From positions 1 through 5,689 of the IMG/VR virus record IMGVR_UViG_2778260996_000001: 5,689 bases of DNA. One strand, given 5' to 3'. Position 1 is the stretch's first letter, and every line of letters starts with the position of its first letter. Shown in pieces: positions 1-5,689 of this stretch. A program made the translations under genes and the position numbers. The notes beneath the pieces are model-generated. The model was not told where the DNA came from, ran no database searches, and worked only from the letters and a program-made list of their open reading frames with translations. The stretch comes from a virus (taxonomy: Duplodnaviria > Heunggongvirae > Uroviricota > Caudoviricetes).

Positions 1-501
1 AAAACCTGGTCCCTGACGCATCCGGTGGATGACGCAATTACCCTGCTGACACAGGGCGGCAGACTGACCTGTAAGTTCCGCCTGTCAGGCGCACTGACCA
101 ACAATCAGTTCGGGCTGGGGATTTATCTGTATACGGATGCTCCCGTTCCTGATGGTGTGGCGATGACGGGTACCGGTAATCCGTTCCTGATGTCGTACTT
201 CACTCAGACCACTGACGGCAGAGTGAATCTGATGCATCACAGGAAAGCCGGAAACACGAAGCTGGGGGAGTTCGGCGATTACGGTAACGACTGGCAGACG
301 CTGGAGCTGGTGTTCACCGCCGGCAGTGCCACGGTTACTCCGAAACTGAATGGAGTGGCTGGCCCGGCATTCCAGGTTATAAAAGACAGTCTGACACTGG
401 GACTGAATGCGCTGACGCTGACGGATGTTACAAAAAATGCAGCGTATGGCGTTGAGATAGAAAGTCTGGTGCTGGAGATAAATGCACCGGCATCATCATA
501 A
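1..501 (+). CDS. hypothetical protein, C-terminal portion (gene starts upstream of window); beta-rich, possibly lectin/carbohydrate-binding-like
   Basis: Reading frame 1 is open from nt 1 (KTWSLTHPV...) to the TAA at 499-501, so the GTG at 25 is probably internal. Gly/Thr/Val-rich composition suggests a beta-sandwich; no motif I can assign to a family. It sits immediately upstream of the lysis cassette, the slot where lambdoid prophages carry morons. Confidence 0.55.
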
Positions 502-586
502 AAAGTGAGCCAGTCAAATGGAAGGTATCGTTAAACTCACCGGTAGTGTCAGTGGGTCGTCTGAGACGCCTGCATGAGTTATCAGA

Positions 587-615
587 GCCATCAGTACTTA
601 ACTGGTGGCTTTTTT
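587..615 (+). terminator. intrinsic-terminator-like hairpin upstream of the holin gene (candidate late-operon tR'-type terminator)
   Basis: GCCATCAG (587-594) / 7-nt loop / CTGGTGGC (602-609) forms an 8-bp stem with one G-U pair, followed directly by TTTTTT (610-615). It lies 35 nt upstream of the holin ATG. Confidence 0.45.
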
Positions 616-650
616 ATTGTTGTCAGCTTCCGGATAACGGGAGACGGGGT

Positions 651-866
651 ATGTACCAGATGGAAAAAATCACAACAGGTGTGTCATACACCACGTCAGC
701 GGTGGGGACGGGATACTGGTTACTGCAGCTGCTGGACAAAGTCTCTCCGTCCCAGTGGGTGGCAATCGGTGTGCTGGGGAGTCTGCTGTTTGGCCTGCTG
801 ACGTATCTGACAAACCTTTATTTCAAGATTAAAGAAGATAAGCGCAAGGCTGCGAGAGGTGAATAA
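651..866 (+). CDS. S: class II holin / pinholin, phage 21 S21-like, with dual-start motif
   Basis: ATG at 651 preceded by GGGAGA (639-644) at 6-nt spacing. The 71-aa product [25 protein letters not shown]...[36 protein letters not shown] has two TMDs and a charged C-terminus, and closely resembles S21 / E. coli essD as I recall them. Met1 and Met4 give the antiholin/holin dual start. The GTG-extended ORF from 546 is rejected because it spans the terminator hairpin. Confidence 0.9.
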
Positions 867-1363
867 TGCCTCCATCATTACGAAAAGCCGTTGCTGCTGC
901 TATTGGTGGTGGGGCTGTTGCCATAGCGTCTGTGCTCATCACTGGTCCGAGTGGTGACGATGGCCTGGAAGGTGTCAGCTACATACCATACGAAGATATC
1001 GTTGGCGTATGGACTGTATGTCATGGACACACCGGAAAAGACATCATGCCCGGTAAAACGTATACCGAAGCAGAATGCAAAGCCCTCCTGAATAAAGACC
1101 TTGCCACGGTCGCCAGACAAATTAACCCGTACATCAAAATCGATATACCGGAAACAACGCGCGGCGCTCTTTACTCGTTCGTTTACAACGTGGGCGCTGG
1201 CAATTTCAGAACATCGACGCTTCTTCGCAAAATAAACCAGGGCGATATCAAAGGCGCATGTGATCAGCTACGGCGCTGGACATACGCTGGCGGTAAGCAA
1301 TGGAAAGGGCTGATGACTCGCCGTGAGATTGAGCGTGAAGTCTGTTTGTGGGGGCAACAATGA
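866..1363 (+). CDS. R: SAR endolysin (phage lysozyme, T4-lysozyme-like muramidase), R21-like
   Basis: ATG overlaps the holin stop (TAATG at 864-868). The N-terminus [27 protein letters not shown] is a Gly/Ala-rich signal-anchor-release domain, followed by a lysozyme core ([23 protein letters not shown] ... [21 protein letters not shown]). Near-identical to phage 21 R as recalled. Confidence 0.93.
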
Positions 1364-1797
1364 GCAGAGTAACCGCGATTATCTACGTTCTGGTCATCTG
1401 CCTCATCGTCTGCCTTTCATGGGCTGTTAATCATTACCGTGATAACGCCATCGCCTACAAAGAGCAGCGCGATAAAGCCACATCCATCATCGCTGATATG
1501 CAGAAGCGGCAACGTGATGTAGCAGAACTTGACGCCAGATACACAAAGGAGCTTGCTGATGCTAATGCGACTATCGAAAGTCTCCGTGCTGATGTTTCTG
1601 CTGGGCGTAAGCGCCTGCAAGTCTCCGCCACCTGTGCAAAGTCAACGACCGGAGCCAGCAGCATGGGCGATGGAGAAAGCCCAGGACTTACAGCAGATGC
1701 TGAACTCAATTATTACCGTCTCCGAGGTGGAATCGACAAGATAACCGCGCAGGTTAACTACCTGCAGGAATACATCAGGACGCAGTGCTTAAAATAA
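1360..1797 (+). CDS. Rz: Rz i-spanin (inner-membrane spanin subunit)
   Basis: ATGA overlap with the endolysin stop (1360-1363), GGGG at 1351-1354 as RBS. The product [39 protein letters not shown]... has an N-terminal TMD plus coiled-coil periplasmic region and strongly resembles lambda Rz from memory. The GTG at 1348 in the ORF track is a less likely start. Confidence 0.88.
1559..1744 (+). CDS. Rz1: Rz1 o-spanin (outer-membrane lipoprotein spanin), embedded in Rz in the +1 frame
   Basis: ATG at 1559 preceded by AAGGAG (1546-1551). The product [20 protein letters not shown]|[16 protein letters not shown]... has a signal peptide with lipobox-like VSAC followed by a proline-rich mature segment, the classic Rz1 architecture, and lies wholly inside Rz. 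Confidence 0.8.
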
Positions 1798-1837
1798 TTT
1801 TAATTTCACTGAAATTTAACAAGTGACTTTCAGGAAA

Positions 1838-1864
1838 ATGCCTCGCAGATGCGGGGCATTTTTG
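1838..1864 (+). terminator. rho-independent terminator downstream of Rz/Rz1 (possibly bidirectional)
   Basis: ATGCCTCGC (1838-1846) / AGAT loop / GCGGGGCAT (1851-1859) forms a 9-bp GC-rich stem with one G-U pair, followed by TTTT(G) and preceded by AAAA. Confidence 0.7.
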
Positions 1865-2015
1865 TACCGGTATTTCACCGCGCACCGCAGCGCACAATAA
1901 ACACCGAACCTGACCCTTTGGAATGGGCCTTTGAGGATACCAGTTAGTGCTGGCGAGCCTCGGTGGGCTGGTTTCCTGTGCGGCAAAGGTTCATTTCAAA
2001 GAAGCAGGCAACGCC

Positions 2016-2564
2016 ATGAATGAATTAATTGCGAATCATGACTTCGACTTTCGCCAGTTAGTTACCGCAGCAGAAGGTCAACCGGTAACTGACACCTTCC
2101 AGATTGCCAGGGCATTTGGTAAACGCCATCAGCATGTGATTAGGGCTATTAAATGTTTGAGATGTTCTGAGGAATTCTCGACAACCCATTTTTGGGCCGT
2201 CGAGAAAATCAATGGCTTAGGTATTTTTGACAAGAAACAGATTTACTACCGCATGGACTTTAGTGGCTTCGTTATGCTGGTTATGGGATTTAACGGGGCA
2301 AAAGCCGATGCTGTTAAAGAAGCCTATATCAATGCGTTTAACTGGATGTCAGCAGAACTCCGTAAGTACAGCGAAAGTTATGAAGCAGAACGTAACGCCG
2401 TAATGCTGGAGTACATGAAAGAGAAGGATGTCGCCAGCATGTCAGGCCGTCTGCTCAATCGCTGGGGGAGAACGAAAAAACCTCAATTGCTTGCAAAGCT
2501 GGAACGTCTGGAGAGACAGGGACAGTTTTTATTACCGGGATTCGATAAAGGTATTCAAGCCTGA
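2016..2564 (+). CDS. rha: Rha-family phage regulatory protein (antirepressor-like, Phage_pRha domain)
   Basis: The translation contains the Rha signature ...VTDTFQIARAFGKRHQHVIRAIKCL... and ...FSGFVMLVMGFNGAKADAVKEAYINAF.... ATG at 2016 (MNELIANHDFDF...) is chosen over the upstream GTG at 1947; both are possible starts. The position after the lysis genes matches where rha sits in P22-like genomes. Confidence 0.82.
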   Translation: MNELIANHDFDFRQLVTAAEGQPVTDTFQIARAFGKRHQHVIRAIKCLRCSEEFSTTHFWAVEKINGLGIFDKKQIYYRMDFSGFVMLVMGFNGAKADAVKEAYINAFNWMSAELRKYSESYEAERNAVMLEYMKEKDVASMSGRLLNRWGRTKKPQLLAKLERLERQGQFLLPGFDKGIQA

Positions 2565-2862
2565 CACATTATGCGCTGTATCGTCGCCGTATTCCCGCAT
2601 TAACCATGACCGTAGCCCGACAGGGAGACTCCTCTGCGCGAGTGTGCGGGGATAATCAAAAACGATACACACCGGGGTTTACCGCGTTAACGGAGCGCGG
2701 CGTTGTCCCCTCATGGTCGCTGGTTCGGTGCGATGGTGGAAGAAACCGGACGATGTGTTACCTCGCAAGACCTGTTATGTCATGTGTCTGATTTGTGATT
2801 TAAGTCGGATAATTGTCGTTGCCATTAAGCAGAGGATTGATGGCCGACAGGGTGGCATTGTT

Positions 2863-2879
2863 AGAATAAGACTTATTCT
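2863..2879. promoter_or_regulatory. perfect 8-bp inverted repeat with 1-bp spacer (candidate operator) in the promoter region of the TonB-C lipoprotein gene
   Basis: AGAATAAG-A-CTTATTCT at 2863-2879, about 20 nt upstream of the lipoprotein start. It overlaps a possible -10 (TAGAAT 2862-2867); a weak -35 candidate TTGATG lies at 2837-2842 with a long 19-nt spacer. Confidence 0.35.
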
Positions 2880-2899
2880 TATCTGTGCCGGGAATGAAA

Positions 2900-3226
2900 A
2901 TGAAAAGAAATCTTCCGTTAATTATTTTGTTGTCTTCTCTGGTTATGGGCTGTACGCAACATAAAACAGATATGCCCCGACAGTTGGTTAAGGCATTACC
3001 ACAATATCCGGCCTATGCAGCGGCAAATTATATAAAGGGACGGGTTGATGTGAAGTTTGATATTGGTGCTGATGGTACTGTCACCCGAATTGAGTTTATC
3101 CGTTCAGAGCCGCACCATCTGTTTGATGAGCAGGTTGTAAAGGCGATGGCAAAATGGCGATTTGAGAAGGACAGGCCGCGTAAAGGCGTGAAGAAAACGT
3201 TTATCTTTAGTCCTTCTGCACCCTGA
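2900..3226 (+). CDS. small secreted (probable lipo)protein consisting of a free-standing TonB C-terminal domain
   Basis: ATG at 2900 with GGGA (2890-2893) at 6-nt spacing; ATG 2894 and GTG 2885 are alternatives. Signal peptide MKRNLPLIILLSSLVMG|C with lipobox-like VMGC. The mature part LPQYPAYAAANYIKGRVDVKFDIGADGTVTRIEFIRSEPHHLFDEQVVKAMAKWRFE matches the TonB_C signature (compare E. coli TonB [55 protein letters not shown], from memory). No proline-rich linker or N-terminal ExbBD-coupling TMD is present. Confidence 0.8.
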   Translation: MKRNLPLIILLSSLVMGCTQHKTDMPRQLVKALPQYPAYAAANYIKGRVDVKFDIGADGTVTRIEFIRSEPHHLFDEQVVKAMAKWRFEKDRPRKGVKKTFIFSPSAP

Positions 3227-3357
3227 TTATTTCATCAGAAATTAATTATCACTCTGTTGTTATTCTGTACATTCCGGCTGGGTAAGTCTTGTTCCGCCGG
3301 GTATGAAGATGAAATATTGTTGGAGGACAGTGGGTACCTGCTCCTGTAACCGAACGT

Positions 3358-3558
3358 TCATTTCTCGTTATTTGTCATGCTGGCCGGACGCAGATGCGTT
3401 GCATCTGTTGCCAGCCTTCTCCTGCAGGCTTCAATAACCCACGCTGAAAAGTTACCGGAACCTTTATGTTCAAGGGCGATATTGATCTGTTCAATCATGT
3501 GATTGGGGAAACGGATATTGCGGATTGTGGTTCTGCGGGTCCGGTTTTTCGATGACAT
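3358..3558 (-). CDS. small basic ribbon-helix-helix-like DNA-binding protein (possibly YlcI/YnfO-like prophage protein family; family assignment from memory only)
   Basis: Minus-strand ATG (complement of 3556-3558) preceded by AGAGGA at 6-nt spacing. The 66-aa product has an Arg-rich N-terminus and a predicted beta-strand TIRNIRFP followed by two helices (MIEQINIALEHKG / NFSAWVIEACRRRL), an Arc/MetJ/CopG-like layout. No competing + strand ORF exists in 3227-3599. Confidence 0.65.
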   Translation of the reverse strand: MSSKNRTRRTTIRNIRFPNHMIEQINIALEHKGSGNFSAWVIEACRRRLATDATHLRPASMTNNEK

Positions 3559-3599
3559 TTTCTTTCCTCTGGTGACAAGCTATATGGAGAGGATTTTAC

Positions 3600-3965
3600 A
3601 TGGCTGTGCTTCGTACGTTACCGGGCAGAATCAAAACTCTGAACACCCGGCGGGTGAATGTCCTGAAGGGTGAACAGCGTCGGGTCAGTGGTAGTGCCCG
3701 GGTTTCCCTCAAGCGTCGTATCTGGCTGAGGGATGCCGGACAGTGCTGTCTCTGTGGGCGTGTGGTTGACCTTTGTGACAGTGAACTTGAGCACCGCATT
3801 GCACTTCAGTTCGGTGGTGGTAATGAGGAGACGAATCTCTGGACGCTCTGTACCGAATGCCATCGACAAAAGTCTGCTCGTGAAGCGGCGAGTGGTATGC
3901 CAGACCCGACGCTGCCGGAGGTGTCCGGAGGTAGTGGCAGAGCGGACGACATCATCGGACTGTAA
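3600..3965 (+). CDS. phage-associated HNH endonuclease (terminase-associated type)
   Basis: ATG at 3600 preceded by GGAGAGGA (3586-3593). The product carries an HNH/zinc-finger motif: CCLCG...DSELEHRIALQFGG...NLWTLCTECHRQK. Its position immediately upstream of the terminase small and large subunit genes is typical of HK97-like cos packaging modules. Confidence 0.9.
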   Translation: MAVLRTLPGRIKTLNTRRVNVLKGEQRRVSGSARVSLKRRIWLRDAGQCCLCGRVVDLCDSELEHRIALQFGGGNEETNLWTLCTECHRQKSAREAASGMPDPTLPEVSGGSGRADDIIGL

Positions 3966-4025
3966 CCCGACCCGGGGGGGGTATCATCCGGCGTAAAAAA
4001 AGATCGCTTTGGACACCGCCCCCCC
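3966..4025. other. candidate cos cleavage region: G8 run and C7 run flanking a 34-bp AT-rich segment
   Basis: GGGGGGGG at 3974-3981 and CCCCCCC at 4019-4025, non-coding, between the HNH stop and the GTTAAC repeat cluster. The assignment as cosN-like is inference from position only. Confidence 0.3.
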
Positions 4026-4057
4026 TCTCACGCAGAGAAAAAATTCCCGTTTCAGGG

Positions 4058-4185
4058 CAGTTAACATGTTAACTGGCTGTCCGGGCATTTTTGCGGTTTT
4101 TATCTTTATTATTCAGTTTGTTGTGCGGAAAAAATGTTAACTGGCTTTTTCAGCAAATGTTAACCAGGCAGCAGTTAACATTTGC
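4058..4185. repeat. cluster of five GTTAAC-containing repeats (18-bp perfect palindrome, 13-bp direct repeat, 12-bp inverted repeat): candidate terminase small-subunit binding sites (cosB/R-site-like)
   Basis: CAGTTAACATGTTAACTG (4058-4075) is a perfect palindrome. ATGTTAACTGGCT occurs at 4066-4078 and 4134-4146. GCAAATGTTAAC (4153-4164) and GTTAACATTTGC (4174-4185) are inverted arms with a 9-bp spacer. T-tract-rich bendable DNA lies between them (4085-4135). All of this sits directly upstream of the terS start. Confidence 0.5.
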
Positions 4186-4255
4186 GGCATGAGACGCCGG
4201 GAAAAATGGGCTGAACCATACCCGGCTGAGTGCGTTCTGGACCCGGGAGGAGGCT

Positions 4256-4819
4256 GTGCTGACAACGCAAAAACGAAAATTTGCGCTGGCGCTCATGTCC
4301 GGGAAAAACAAAACAGCGTCAGCCATTGCCGCTGGTTATTCGGCGAAGACCGCCAGGGTTAAAGGCTCGCAGCTGGCAAAAGATCCGGAGGTGCTTGCGT
4401 TTATAGCCCGTAAACAATGCGAGACGGTGGAGGTGGATGAGGTTCCTGTTTACCGGCAGAAAAAATCAGAGCAGGAGGATAAACCCCGTCGCCGTGAGGC
4501 GGCTGCAATACCACAGCCGGACGAAAACAATCCGGAGATGCCTCCGCCCGCGGTGATATCTCATGGTATTGAATATATGGAGGATGGTCTTCCCGATCCG
4601 GTGAAAGCGATGGGGCGTCTTCTGGTGGAGAACATTAATACCGACCCCAGGCTGGCGCTGGATGCGGCTTATAAGCTGGCGCAGTTCACGCACCACAAAA
4701 AAGGGGATGCCGGTAAAAAATCGGCAAAAGGTGACGCCGCGAAAAAAGCGGCTAACCGTTTTGCGGTGCCACCACCACCCCGCCTGGTGGTGAATAATGA
4801 TAATGAGGGCAACGGATGA
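4256..4819 (+). CDS. terS: terminase small subunit (phage Terminase_2/P27-type HTH small subunit)
   Basis: GTG at 4256 directly after GGGAGGAGG (4245-4253). The N-terminus KRKFALALMSGKNKTASAIAAGYSAKTARVKGSQLAKDPEVLAFI matches the small-terminase HTH signature (AGYS.K.A ... L.K.P.V..I). ATGA overlap with the downstream large-subunit gene (4816-4819). Confidence 0.85.
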   Translation: MLTTQKRKFALALMSGKNKTASAIAAGYSAKTARVKGSQLAKDPEVLAFIARKQCETVEVDEVPVYRQKKSEQEDKPRRREAAAIPQPDENNPEMPPPAVISHGIEYMEDGLPDPVKAMGRLLVENINTDPRLALDAAYKLAQFTHHKKGDAGKKSAKGDAAKKAANRFAVPPPPRLVVNNDNEGNG

Positions 4820-5616
4820 TACCTGTGTGGAGCACGGCCTGCCCGGACTGGGCAGAGCGCCTGAAAAAGGGGCTGTCGATTATTCCGGCTCCGATTTATC
4901 CGGAGCAGGCCGCACATGCCCTGGCGATTTTTAAACAACTGCGGATTGTGGATGCACCTGGTAGCCCTACGTTCGGGGAGTCCTGTGCACCGTGGGTGTT
5001 TGACCTGGTGGCGGCCCTGTTTGGCTCCTACGATGCGCAGACCGGTGTACGCCATATCAAGGAAGTTTTTATCCTTATCCCCAAGAAAAACTCGAAGTCC
5101 ACGCTGGCCGCGGGGATCATGATGACTGCACTGTTACTGAACTGGCGGCAGGCGGCGGGTTACACGATTCTGGCCCCGACTGTGGAGGTGGCGGCCAACG
5201 CCTTCAACCCTGCCCGGGATATGGTACGACGTGACGATGATCTGGATGACCTCTGCCAGGTACAGACCCATATCCGGACCATCACCCACCGGGTGACGGA
5301 CACCACCCTGAAGGTGGTGGCAGCCGATCCGAATACGGTGTCCGGTATCAAGTCCGTGGGTACGCTGATTGATGAGTTGTGGCTGTTTGGCAAGCAGTGC
5401 AAGGCGGAGGACATGTTACGTGAAGCCATAGGCGGCCTTGCCTCCCGCCCGGAAGGGTTTGTGGTGTATACGACCACCCAGTCGAATGAACCGCCCGCCG
5501 GGGTGTTCAGACAGAAACTGCAGTACGCCCGGGATGTGCGCGACGGCAAAATTCATGATCCGCACTTTCTGCCGGTGATATTTGAACACCCTCCTGAAAT
5601 GGTGGAAAGCGGGTAA
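4816..5616 (+). CDS. terL: terminase large subunit, N-terminal ATPase domain only; ORF ends prematurely (probably disrupted or pseudogenised)
   Basis: Translationally coupled to terS. Walker A-like P-loop ILIPKKNSKST and Walker B-like VGTLIDELWLFG (compare HK97 TerL GRKNGKS / IIDELHAH, from memory). The ORF stops at 5614-5616 after 266 aa and all three forward frames hit stops by 5665, whereas large terminases are typically over 400 aa with a C-terminal nuclease domain. Confidence 0.8.
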   Translation: MIPVWSTACPDWAERLKKGLSIIPAPIYPEQAAHALAIFKQLRIVDAPGSPTFGESCAPWVFDLVAALFGSYDAQTGVRHIKEVFILIPKKNSKSTLAAGIMMTALLLNWRQAAGYTILAPTVEVAANAFNPARDMVRRDDDLDDLCQVQTHIRTITHRVTDTTLKVVAADPNTVSGIKSVGTLIDELWLFGKQCKAEDMLREAIGGLASRPEGFVVYTTTQSNEPPAGVFRQKLQYARDVRDGKIHDPHFLPVIFEHPPEMVESG

Positions 5617-5689
5617 GCGTCGTCTCAGCACCGTCTGGCAGATCCTGAAATTCCTGAGAGAATAGTGGACACCAAATATGGTGGACGCT

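Follow-up and report, generated by a model that had tools for sequence, protein, structure and literature searches.

Two independently exchanged cargo slots around a conserved non-coding element probably make up the lysis-to-packaging junction of a Stx-type lambdoid prophage

What lies between the lysis and the packaging genes of a lambdoid prophage, and was it acquired as one piece? We addressed this question on a 5,689-nucleotide stretch of viral DNA (Caudoviricetes; IMG/VR record IMGVR_UViG_2778260996_000001, positions 1 to 5,689; hereafter the window), which is the late region of a Shiga toxin (Stx)-type lambdoid prophage. An earlier note on this DNA had read positions 1,798 to 3,599 as a single island of three accessory genes, encoding a Rha-family regulator, a lipoprotein with a TonB C-terminal domain (TonB-C) and a small ribbon-helix-helix (RHH)-like protein. 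That lambdoid phages carry accessory genes behind Rz is textbook knowledge, and the island as such is ordinary. From the comparison of related loci, we consider it likely that this 1.8-kb stretch corresponds to the zone where lambdoid phages normally carry accessory genes between lysis and packaging, with two slots arranged around a conserved 179-nucleotide (nt) non-coding element and with a constant ylcI gene. The Rha part of it is already known; for the TonB-C lipoprotein and the 179-nt element, our literature search brought up no functional study. On the late strand, the order would be Rz, terminator, slot A, 179-nt element, slot B, ylcI (on the minus strand) and packaging module. The features of the junction are:

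1798-2015, plus strand: leader of slot A, with the intrinsic terminator of Rz
2016-2564, plus strand: cargo of slot A, Rha-family regulator (Pfam, TIGR02681)
2573-2751, plus strand: conserved 179-nt non-coding element between slots A and B (coverage, conservation, predicted pairing)
2749-3352, plus strand: cargo of slot B, 604-bp TonB cassette (coverage step at 2751/3350), made of a leader (2749-2899), the coding sequence (2900-3226) and a trailer (3227-3352)
3358-3558, minus strand: ylcI/ynfO-family (DUF3950) gene (Pfam)

Hundreds of Stx and non-Stx phages share parts of the window, as do 5,220 of 5,426 complete E. coli genomes. Coverage of the window reaches at most 82% in any phage record and 86% in any complete E. 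coli genome, which gave a first hint of a variable middle. The set of relatives comprises 80 viral contigs selected through the HNH protein as anchor and five annotated E. coli loci (85 in total), classified by tblastn; content states were counted on the 78 loci with Rz as well as ylcI/HNH, and the per-base coverage profile was computed on all 85. Among the 78 loci, the distance from Rz to ylcI ranges from 198 bp (empty) to ~2.5 kb, with the following contents:

39 of 78: none of the query genes (gaps of 198-1478 bp)
26 of 78: TonB gene alone
5 of 78: Rha and TonB
3 of 78: KilA-N, an 85-amino-acid (aa) open reading frame (ORF) and TonB
3 of 78: KilA-N and the 85-aa ORF
2 of 78: Rha alone

Gaps without any of the query genes are empty (at 198 bp) or contain a 74-aa ORF, a second KilA-N type or a PerC/Pch-family activator (Pfam E 4e-44); a ParD/ParE pair was found in one TonB-positive locus and a gp49-like gene in others. 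Slot A of the relatives holds bor/iss, KilA-N with the 85-aa ORF, the 74-aa ORF, ParDE, the gp49-like gene or nothing, and slot B is empty or, in lambda and DLP12, holds DUF1398/ybcW genes. The order is also seen in lambda, DLP12-type, VT2-Sakai and Salmonella S107 loci, and the curated phage 21 map reads Rz/Rz1, bor (minus strand), element, TonB C-domain gene, cosQ. The junction is thus mosaic, as the earlier note had proposed, with a content that varies between relatives keeping both flanks and with conversion-type cargo at this position elsewhere (bor/iss, PerC/Pch regulators, ParDE toxin-antitoxin). That note had named, as the outcome that would speak against it, the invariable presence of the same three genes, and this is not what the related loci display.

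The coverage profile divides the junction into blocks. The slot A leader (1798-2015) is covered by ~10-11 of the 85 loci, the Rha N-domain by 2, positions 2565-2750 by ~75, positions 2751-3350 by 36, and everything from ~3400 on by all 85. In the complete E. coli genomes, the Rha N-domain allele (2 of the 85 loci) occurs in 362 of 5,426, and the TonB cassette (36 of the 85 loci) in 417, full-length in 414 and almost always at an identity of at least 95%. The TonB cassette is bounded by AACCG direct repeats (2744-2748 and 3348-3352). In loci devoid of it, ...GGAAGAAACCG joins AACGTTCATTTCTCG (the 3' end of ylcI) directly, so that ...GAAACCG from the element is followed by AACGTTC... from ylcI where the window has 604 bp in between. 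In both slots, empty and filled states occur with identical flanks, which is the insertion pattern of a moron, the exception being ylcI. Overall, these data clearly indicate that the Rha and TonB cassettes are exchanged independently, in separate slots.

The identity tracts present the window as a recombinant of two E. coli prophage types. Positions 1301-2752 are 100% identical to one relative (L001; NZ_CP148357), which carries Rz, Rha, the element and ylcI and no TonB gene, and positions 2571-3700 are 99% identical to another (L004; NZ_CP193495), which carries Rz, the element, TonB, ylcI and HNH and no Rha gene. As the two tracts overlap only at 2571-2752, the crossover is placed inside the conserved element. 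The Rha and KilA-N cassettes have in common a 5' leader (to ~2028) and a short 3' trailer (2544-2572), and positions 1301-2028 of the window align at 92% with a KilA-N-bearing locus (L003). These shared cassette flanks and the crossover in the element fit an exchange by homologous recombination, which would take place in the conserved sequences around the slots. Some contigs carry two copies of the element around the 74-aa ORF, ~950 bp apart (L098, at 5058-5235 and 6008-6185; also L122), an arrangement that looks like a duplication via unequal recombination at the element.

The third gene of the presumed island behaves differently. ylcI is present in 85 of the 85 HNH-anchored loci, always 41 bp from the HNH start, and we therefore regard it as a constant packaging-side block in this lineage and not as cargo. 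Residues 1-50 of YlcI are nearly invariant and its C-terminal 15-30 residues (window 3358-3420) are wholly different between alleles, a hypervariable tail indicating that the recombination junctions of slot B fall inside the 3' end of ylcI. The family assignment is clear (71.7 bits against Pfam DUF3950, cut-off 25; 35.3 against NF041551, cut-off 30). The AlphaFold2 model (predicted local distance difference test, pLDDT, 72) has an extended segment (residues 1-18) followed by two helices (19-32 and 34-55), and no match to YlcI was found among PDB sequences. YlcI would be a small DNA-binding protein, probably of the RHH type, associated with the genome end near cos. Our literature search returned no functional paper on ylcI, ynfO or DUF3950. 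An intact 64-aa YlcI/DUF3950 ORF also lies ~200 bp from cos in lambda (NC_001416, complement 48,109-48,303; L210, 2710-2904), where it is not among the features of that RefSeq stretch; phage 21 is devoid of ylcI. In K-12, RNA-seq indicates that transcription of ybcW-ylcI is convergent (PMC12288877).

Between the two slots lies the element, which has a G+C content (GC) of 0.59 and fills the first part of the 2565-2899 spacer. This spacer and the one at 3227-3357, described before as long and non-coding, are indeed non-coding but not anonymous: the former consists of the element and of the ~148-nt TonB leader, and the latter is the trailer of the TonB cassette. The element is present in 75 of the 85 loci and in 3,096 of the 5,426 E. 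coli genomes (57%), with a median of two copies. Among phages, it is found in lambda-type hybrids, 434, mEp460, 21 and the VT2-Sakai/933W type (77-81% identity) and in Salmonella S107/SPN3UB (75%); in phage 21 it is located between bor and the TonB-C gene, and P22-like phages are among its carriers too. In a sample anchored on the element itself, 100 of 100 copies are on the late strand, downstream of Rz or of a slot A cargo, and the packaging genes that follow are Nu1-type in 37 cases, HNH-type in 14 and 933W-type in three.

We rejected a coding function for the element, since the copies display 38 runs of single-nt indels with no frame open in all of them; the variable columns are evenly spread across codon phases (38/59, 40/60 and 33/60), with no periodicity. 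A mobile element was rejected as well, given the lack of terminal inverted repeats, the single copy per junction and the fixed orientation. Several ORFs have been annotated across it, such as VT2-Sakai orf48 (L087, 2479-2739), a VT2-Sap50 'Rz-like spanin' and various 'hypothetical proteins'; these are probably spurious, because 1-nt indels are tolerated and no frame is open in all copies. The known prophage small RNAs (sRNAs) AgvB, AsxR, Pas, STnc100 and Esr41 were ruled out as candidates, being located upstream of the holin gene. A scan of the whole window with Rfam 15 (E <= 1; including AgvB, AsxR and STnc100) gave no match, a tRNA scan over the same length found none, and our literature search found no description of the element or of an RNA between Rz and cos.

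RNAalifold predicts 44 base pairs in the element. In three sets of non-redundant copies (33, 34 and 56), 97-98% of the cells at these pairs are paired, versus 35-62% with slid partners, and 12-13 pairs are changed on both sides, versus 5-7 in shuffles, none of 500 shuffles being as high. The plus strand fits the pairing better than the minus strand (97.5% versus 85.2% paired) because of G-U pairs (188 cells). In 95 unique copies, the mutual information of the predicted pairs is above background (p about 1e-5). The 3' hairpin is the best-supported part of the structure. These tests, made on aligned copies, tip the balance towards a functional RNA structure. Such an RNA would fold within the late mRNA and influence in cis how the transcript is processed, or how stable it is, between its lysis and morphogenesis parts.

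Slot B of the window encodes the TonB-C lipoprotein. Its start is likely the second ATG (2900, giving 108 aa), because the first is ATA in a subfamily that is 71% identical. The protein is composed of a lipobox (LVMGC) with T at +2, a linker of ~15 residues and a complete TonB C-terminal domain (Pfam PF03544, E 5.5e-15, 56 bits versus a cut-off of 24.6; TIGR01352, 56.5 versus 27.1), which aligns to residues ~153-235 of E. coli TonB (PDB 1u07, 2grx, 2gsk; E about 5e-16). It has neither the N-terminal membrane anchor that couples to ExbB/ExbD nor the proline-rich spacer, and so lacks what makes TonB an energy transducer. The family is small and nearly confined to E. coli, with three subfamilies (100%, 71% and 40% identity to the window protein) that all keep the lipobox, T/S at +2, the linker and the domain. 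The 71%-identical subfamily is present in phage 21 and keeps the order element, leader, TonB gene; the 40%-identical one is found in a Klebsiella phage, behind its lysis genes.

The residue at +2 governs the sorting of lipoproteins to the outer membrane, and periplasmic C-terminal fragments of TonB are dominant-negative inhibitors. Given this architecture, we consider the TonB-C lipoprotein a probable periplasmic decoy for TonB boxes. With T at +2 it would be sorted to the outer membrane, where its TonB-like domain would bind the TonB boxes of TonB-dependent receptors in competition with TonB. This competition would block the entry of TonB-dependent phages and colicins, an exclusion akin to that exerted by T5 Llp and Cor. 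Taken together as a single proposal, that the element is an undescribed structured RNA of lambdoid phages serving also as a homology anchor for cargo exchange, and that the neighboring TonB-C protein is an exclusion factor of a new type jamming many TonB boxes, the picture is possible, though less likely than not.

Several observations weigh against our interpretation of the zone, the element and the lipoprotein. Reference lambda keeps only the 5' 115 nt of the element (~46,869-46,981) and PerC-type loci are without it; thus, it is not essential. Note that the structure of the element was derived from the same sequences that were used to test it. Only one of the 18 variable predicted pairs is among the top 50 of 6,786 column pairs, the strongest mutual-information signals coming from haplotype blocks of adjacent columns, and we grade the covariation support as moderate. 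As to the lipoprotein, the position matching Q160 of TonB varies (L, Y or H), our literature search for a TonB-like prophage protein found no functional study, and the host of such a decoy would be expected to take up less iron. A consensus scan found no sigma-70-like promoter on the plus strand within the region, and the TonB trailer has no significant (terminator-like) fold on either strand; with neither a promoter nor a terminator of its own seen for the cargo, the scans give no sign of the autonomous expression that a moron has in the strict sense. Finally, the best Foldseek matches of the YlcI model, RHH proteins (ParD2 antitoxin) and a TCP domain, are non-significant (E > 2).

How do the alternatives compare with the two-slot zone? 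That the three genes form one contiguous island acquired together is, in our judgment, very improbable. The GC profile does bear out the composition reported before: Rha (0.43-0.47), the TonB cassette (0.42-0.44) and ylcI (0.48), i.e. 0.42-0.48, are below the terminase genes (0.54 for terS and 0.58 for terL), with the lysis genes at 0.50-0.51 and HNH at 0.57; the two cassettes have the deviating composition of a moron (0.42-0.47 versus 0.50-0.58 in the flanks). None of the three is a known lysis or packaging gene, and their combination is seen in the five loci with Rha and TonB. However, ylcI goes with HNH in every locus, Rha and the TonB gene occur one without the other, the element separates them in most relatives, and the two halves of the window have different nearest relatives. 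It is improbable too, if less so, that the genes are ordinary parts of the late program, with the TonB-C lipoprotein as an accessory envelope or lysis factor and YlcI as a cos-proximal DNA-binding packaging accessory. No promoter of its own is predicted for the TonB-C gene, which has the late orientation and, in phage 21 and the Klebsiella phage, directly follows the lysis genes; ylcI is always adjacent to HNH or separated from Nu1 and cos by a few hundred bp; and PHROG 1267, which matches window 2894-3226, is labeled 'Rz-like spanin', a label also propagated into RefSeq phage records. An i-spanin has an N-terminal transmembrane domain and a coiled coil, an o-spanin is a short proline-rich lipoprotein paired with it, and a u-spanin combines a lipobox with a C-terminal transmembrane domain. 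We rejected the spanin label, as only the lipobox is shared and the bulk of the protein consists of a globular TonB_C domain, with neither the C-terminal transmembrane segment nor the coiled coil of spanins; the presence upstream of a complete, genuine Rz/Rz1 pair adds to this doubt, and the label looks like one carried over from the genomic neighborhood. Of the 78 close relatives that share the lysis and packaging genes, moreover, 44 are without the TonB gene, and ylcI is absent from phage 21 and undetected in 13 Nu1-type loci (Nu1 250-307 bp after the element).

The other two alternatives bear on the function of single parts. The element could have no RNA function and be a DNA linker kept or homogenized by recombination, or a protein-binding DNA site, its pairing arising from GC-richness and shared ancestry; we hold this to be possible, though not the likelier course. 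It would agree with the crossover of the window falling inside the element, with element borders that match the cassette junctions, with the dominance of haplotype blocks in the mutual information and a single-sequence fold of only z = -1.8, and with its truncation in lambda and absence from PerC-type loci. Against this stand the pairing kept in 97% of the cells and the 12-13 double-sided changes in several independent lineages, all shuffle and slide controls being lower, as well as the strand asymmetry due to G-U pairs and the orientation fixed with respect to late transcription in the 100 sampled copies. For the lipoprotein, a role as a conversion factor of the Bor/Iss kind (serum resistance, tethering of the outer membrane to peptidoglycan) or as a modulator of iron uptake seems rather unlikely compared with a decoy. 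Bor/Iss lipoproteins do hold the neighboring slot in lambda, 21 and DLP12, and the cassette is frequent in Shiga toxin-producing E. coli (STEC) and cattle isolates; yet the TonB-C protein is unrelated to Bor in sequence, and its sole recognizable domain is the TonB-box-binding domain of TonB, at full length.

The two-slot zone raises the question of how its cargo would be expressed. The three genes lie, at or near the positions first proposed and with the proposed orientations (+, +, -), behind a real terminator of Rz, with a 13-bp stem (1834-1863) followed by a U run; the surrounding 83-nt stretch folds with z = -5.3. Rha and the TonB-C lipoprotein would be read from the Q-antiterminated late transcript. 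The TonB leader is moderately structured (z = -2.3), with two blocks conserved between subfamilies that could be signals. Just upstream of the TonB-C ribosome-binding site, at 2863-2879, is a 17-bp palindrome (AGAATAAG-A-CTTATTCT); we dropped it as an operator, its right half being missing in the phage-21-type subfamily, where the left half is conserved. Matches to a Fur box and to a CRP-like site in this leader are weak and seen by eye only, and we make no claim of them. Promoter-like sites are not enriched in the window (2 found versus 5.3 expected). Inside the TonB-C gene, an antisense sigma-70-like site (3054-3027, minus strand; TTCACA, 16 nt, TATAAT; 11/12) points towards the element. PADLOC defense profiles gave no match for Rha, the TonB-C lipoprotein or YlcI.

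The Rha-family gene of slot A (2016-2564; a PGAP-style GTG start would be at 1947) encodes an N-terminal DNA-binding Phage_pRha domain (Pfam E 7e-21; 75 bits versus a cut-off of 29.9) and a C-terminal ORF11CD3 domain (E 4e-23), and scores 72.6 against TIGR02681 (cut-off 45.95). It is 84% identical to the Rha of P22-like phages and 37% to that of phi80. In phi80 the order is Rz/Rz1, terminator, rha, on to cosQ, and in a P22-like phage Rz/Rz1, rha, terS; a rha gene placed behind Rz is the classical phi80/P22 layout and already known. The phi80 gene is annotated 'DNA synthesis inhibition in IHF- hosts', and the inhibition of phage growth in IHF-defective hosts is known for this family from that annotation and from prior literature. 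Among the HNH-type relatives, a PerC/Pch-family activator is found in seven (L008, L014, L019, L023, L028, L029 and L033; Rz-ylcI gap ~935 bp), which are exactly those without the conserved element.

The flanks are, as the earlier note had recognized, a phage-21-type lysis cassette and an HK97-type HNH, terS and terL module:

25-501: C-terminus of a NanS-p/DUF6645 esterase
651-1797, plus strand: left constant flank, the phage-21-type lysis cassette
651-866, plus strand: holin, P21-type (Pfam Phage_holin_2_1 E 1e-32, PHROG match)
866-1363, plus strand: endolysin, signal-anchor-release (SAR)-type (Pfam and PHROG matches)
1360-1797, plus strand: Rz (Pfam and PHROG matches)
~1559-1744, plus strand: Rz1, embedded within Rz (lipobox LLGVSAC read from the ORF)
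3600-3965, plus strand: HNH endonuclease (Pfam and PHROG matches)
3966-4255, plus strand: candidate cos/TerS-site region between HNH and terS (repeat family)
4256-4819, plus strand: terS, Terminase_2 (Pfam and PHROG matches)
4816-5613, plus strand: N-terminal part of terL, its first 266 codons (Pfam and PHROG matches)
5614-5689: left end of an IS66-family element (ISEc22-like), starting GTAAGCG...

Identity to the phage 21 proteins is 95% for the endolysin and 73% for the holin. The HNH-terS intergenic region (3966-4255) contains direct and inverted (A)ATGTTAAC(TG) repeats at 4057-4078, 4131-4146, 4153-4164 and 4171-4185, as well as G8 and C7 runs at 3971-3980 and 4019-4025; these sequences probably represent the TerS-binding and cos sites of this HK97-type module, a class in which HNH proteins take part in cos cleavage. 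The IS66-family element sits in terL after codon 266 and supplies the stop codon. The homology of the relatives all ends at 5613, at this insertion, indicating that the prophage is packaging-defective.

The map of the junction, with its two slots, fixed landmark and constant ylcI, is valid across lambda-, 21-, 933W- and HK97-type packaging backgrounds, and explains the shuffling of bor/iss, PerC/Pch, ParDE and the TonB-C gene among STEC prophages. Its landmark, the element, is present in well-studied phages, where annotation pipelines have ignored it or covered it with spurious ORFs. The TonB-C lipoprotein, present in the classical phage 21, suggests a simple route to the broad exclusion of TonB-dependent phages and colicins.

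This organization can be set against known systems. Like bor of lambda and morons in general (see PMC8065619 for the definition), the window cargo occupies the zone downstream of Rz, deviates in composition and varies in presence, bor/iss being found in slot A of lambda, 21 and DLP12; lambda bor runs against the late strand and has expression signals of its own, whereas both cargo genes of the window run with it, and no separate promoter or terminator was found for them. The packaging genes have the HNH, intergenic repeats, Terminase_2 terS and TerL of the HK97 type in identical order, except that terL is broken in the window by the IS66-family element. The window rha has the Phage_pRha domain of its phi80 and P22 counterparts and their position after Rz (with the terminator, in phi80), and differs in lying in a Stx-type late region with HK97-type packaging. 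As for the 179-nt element, it resembles AgvB, AsxR, Pas, STnc100 and Esr41 as a non-coding sequence in the late region of lambdoid prophages; those sRNAs, however, are 3' of PR', upstream of the holin gene and in Rfam, whereas the element comes after Rz and has no Rfam match (E <= 1).

The closest counterpart of the lipoprotein is CPT_21_73 of phage 21 ('TonB C-terminal domain protein'), of the same family (71% identical), with the same lipobox-linker-domain build and the same place after the element and before cos; it belongs to the other subfamily, is followed by lambda-type packaging genes in a phage that has no ylcI, and is known by annotation. The 'partial tonB-like membrane protein encoded within prophage CP-933N' of EDL933 is of the same family. 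T5 Llp and Cor, both lipoproteins of the outer membrane, act from the periplasm to block FhuA (for the mechanism of Llp, see bioRxiv 10.64898/2026.03.26.714494). In general profile scans, which included no direct comparison with Llp or Cor, the only family matches of the TonB-C protein are TonB_C families. The protein is nevertheless comparable to T5 Llp and to the Cor proteins of phi80, N15 and HK022 as a small phage-encoded lipoprotein, predicted to be anchored in the outer membrane's inner leaflet and to act on a TonB-dependent receptor from its periplasmic face; it differs from them in being a TonB C-domain encoded at another genome position, and it would target the TonB box of many receptors, not FhuA.

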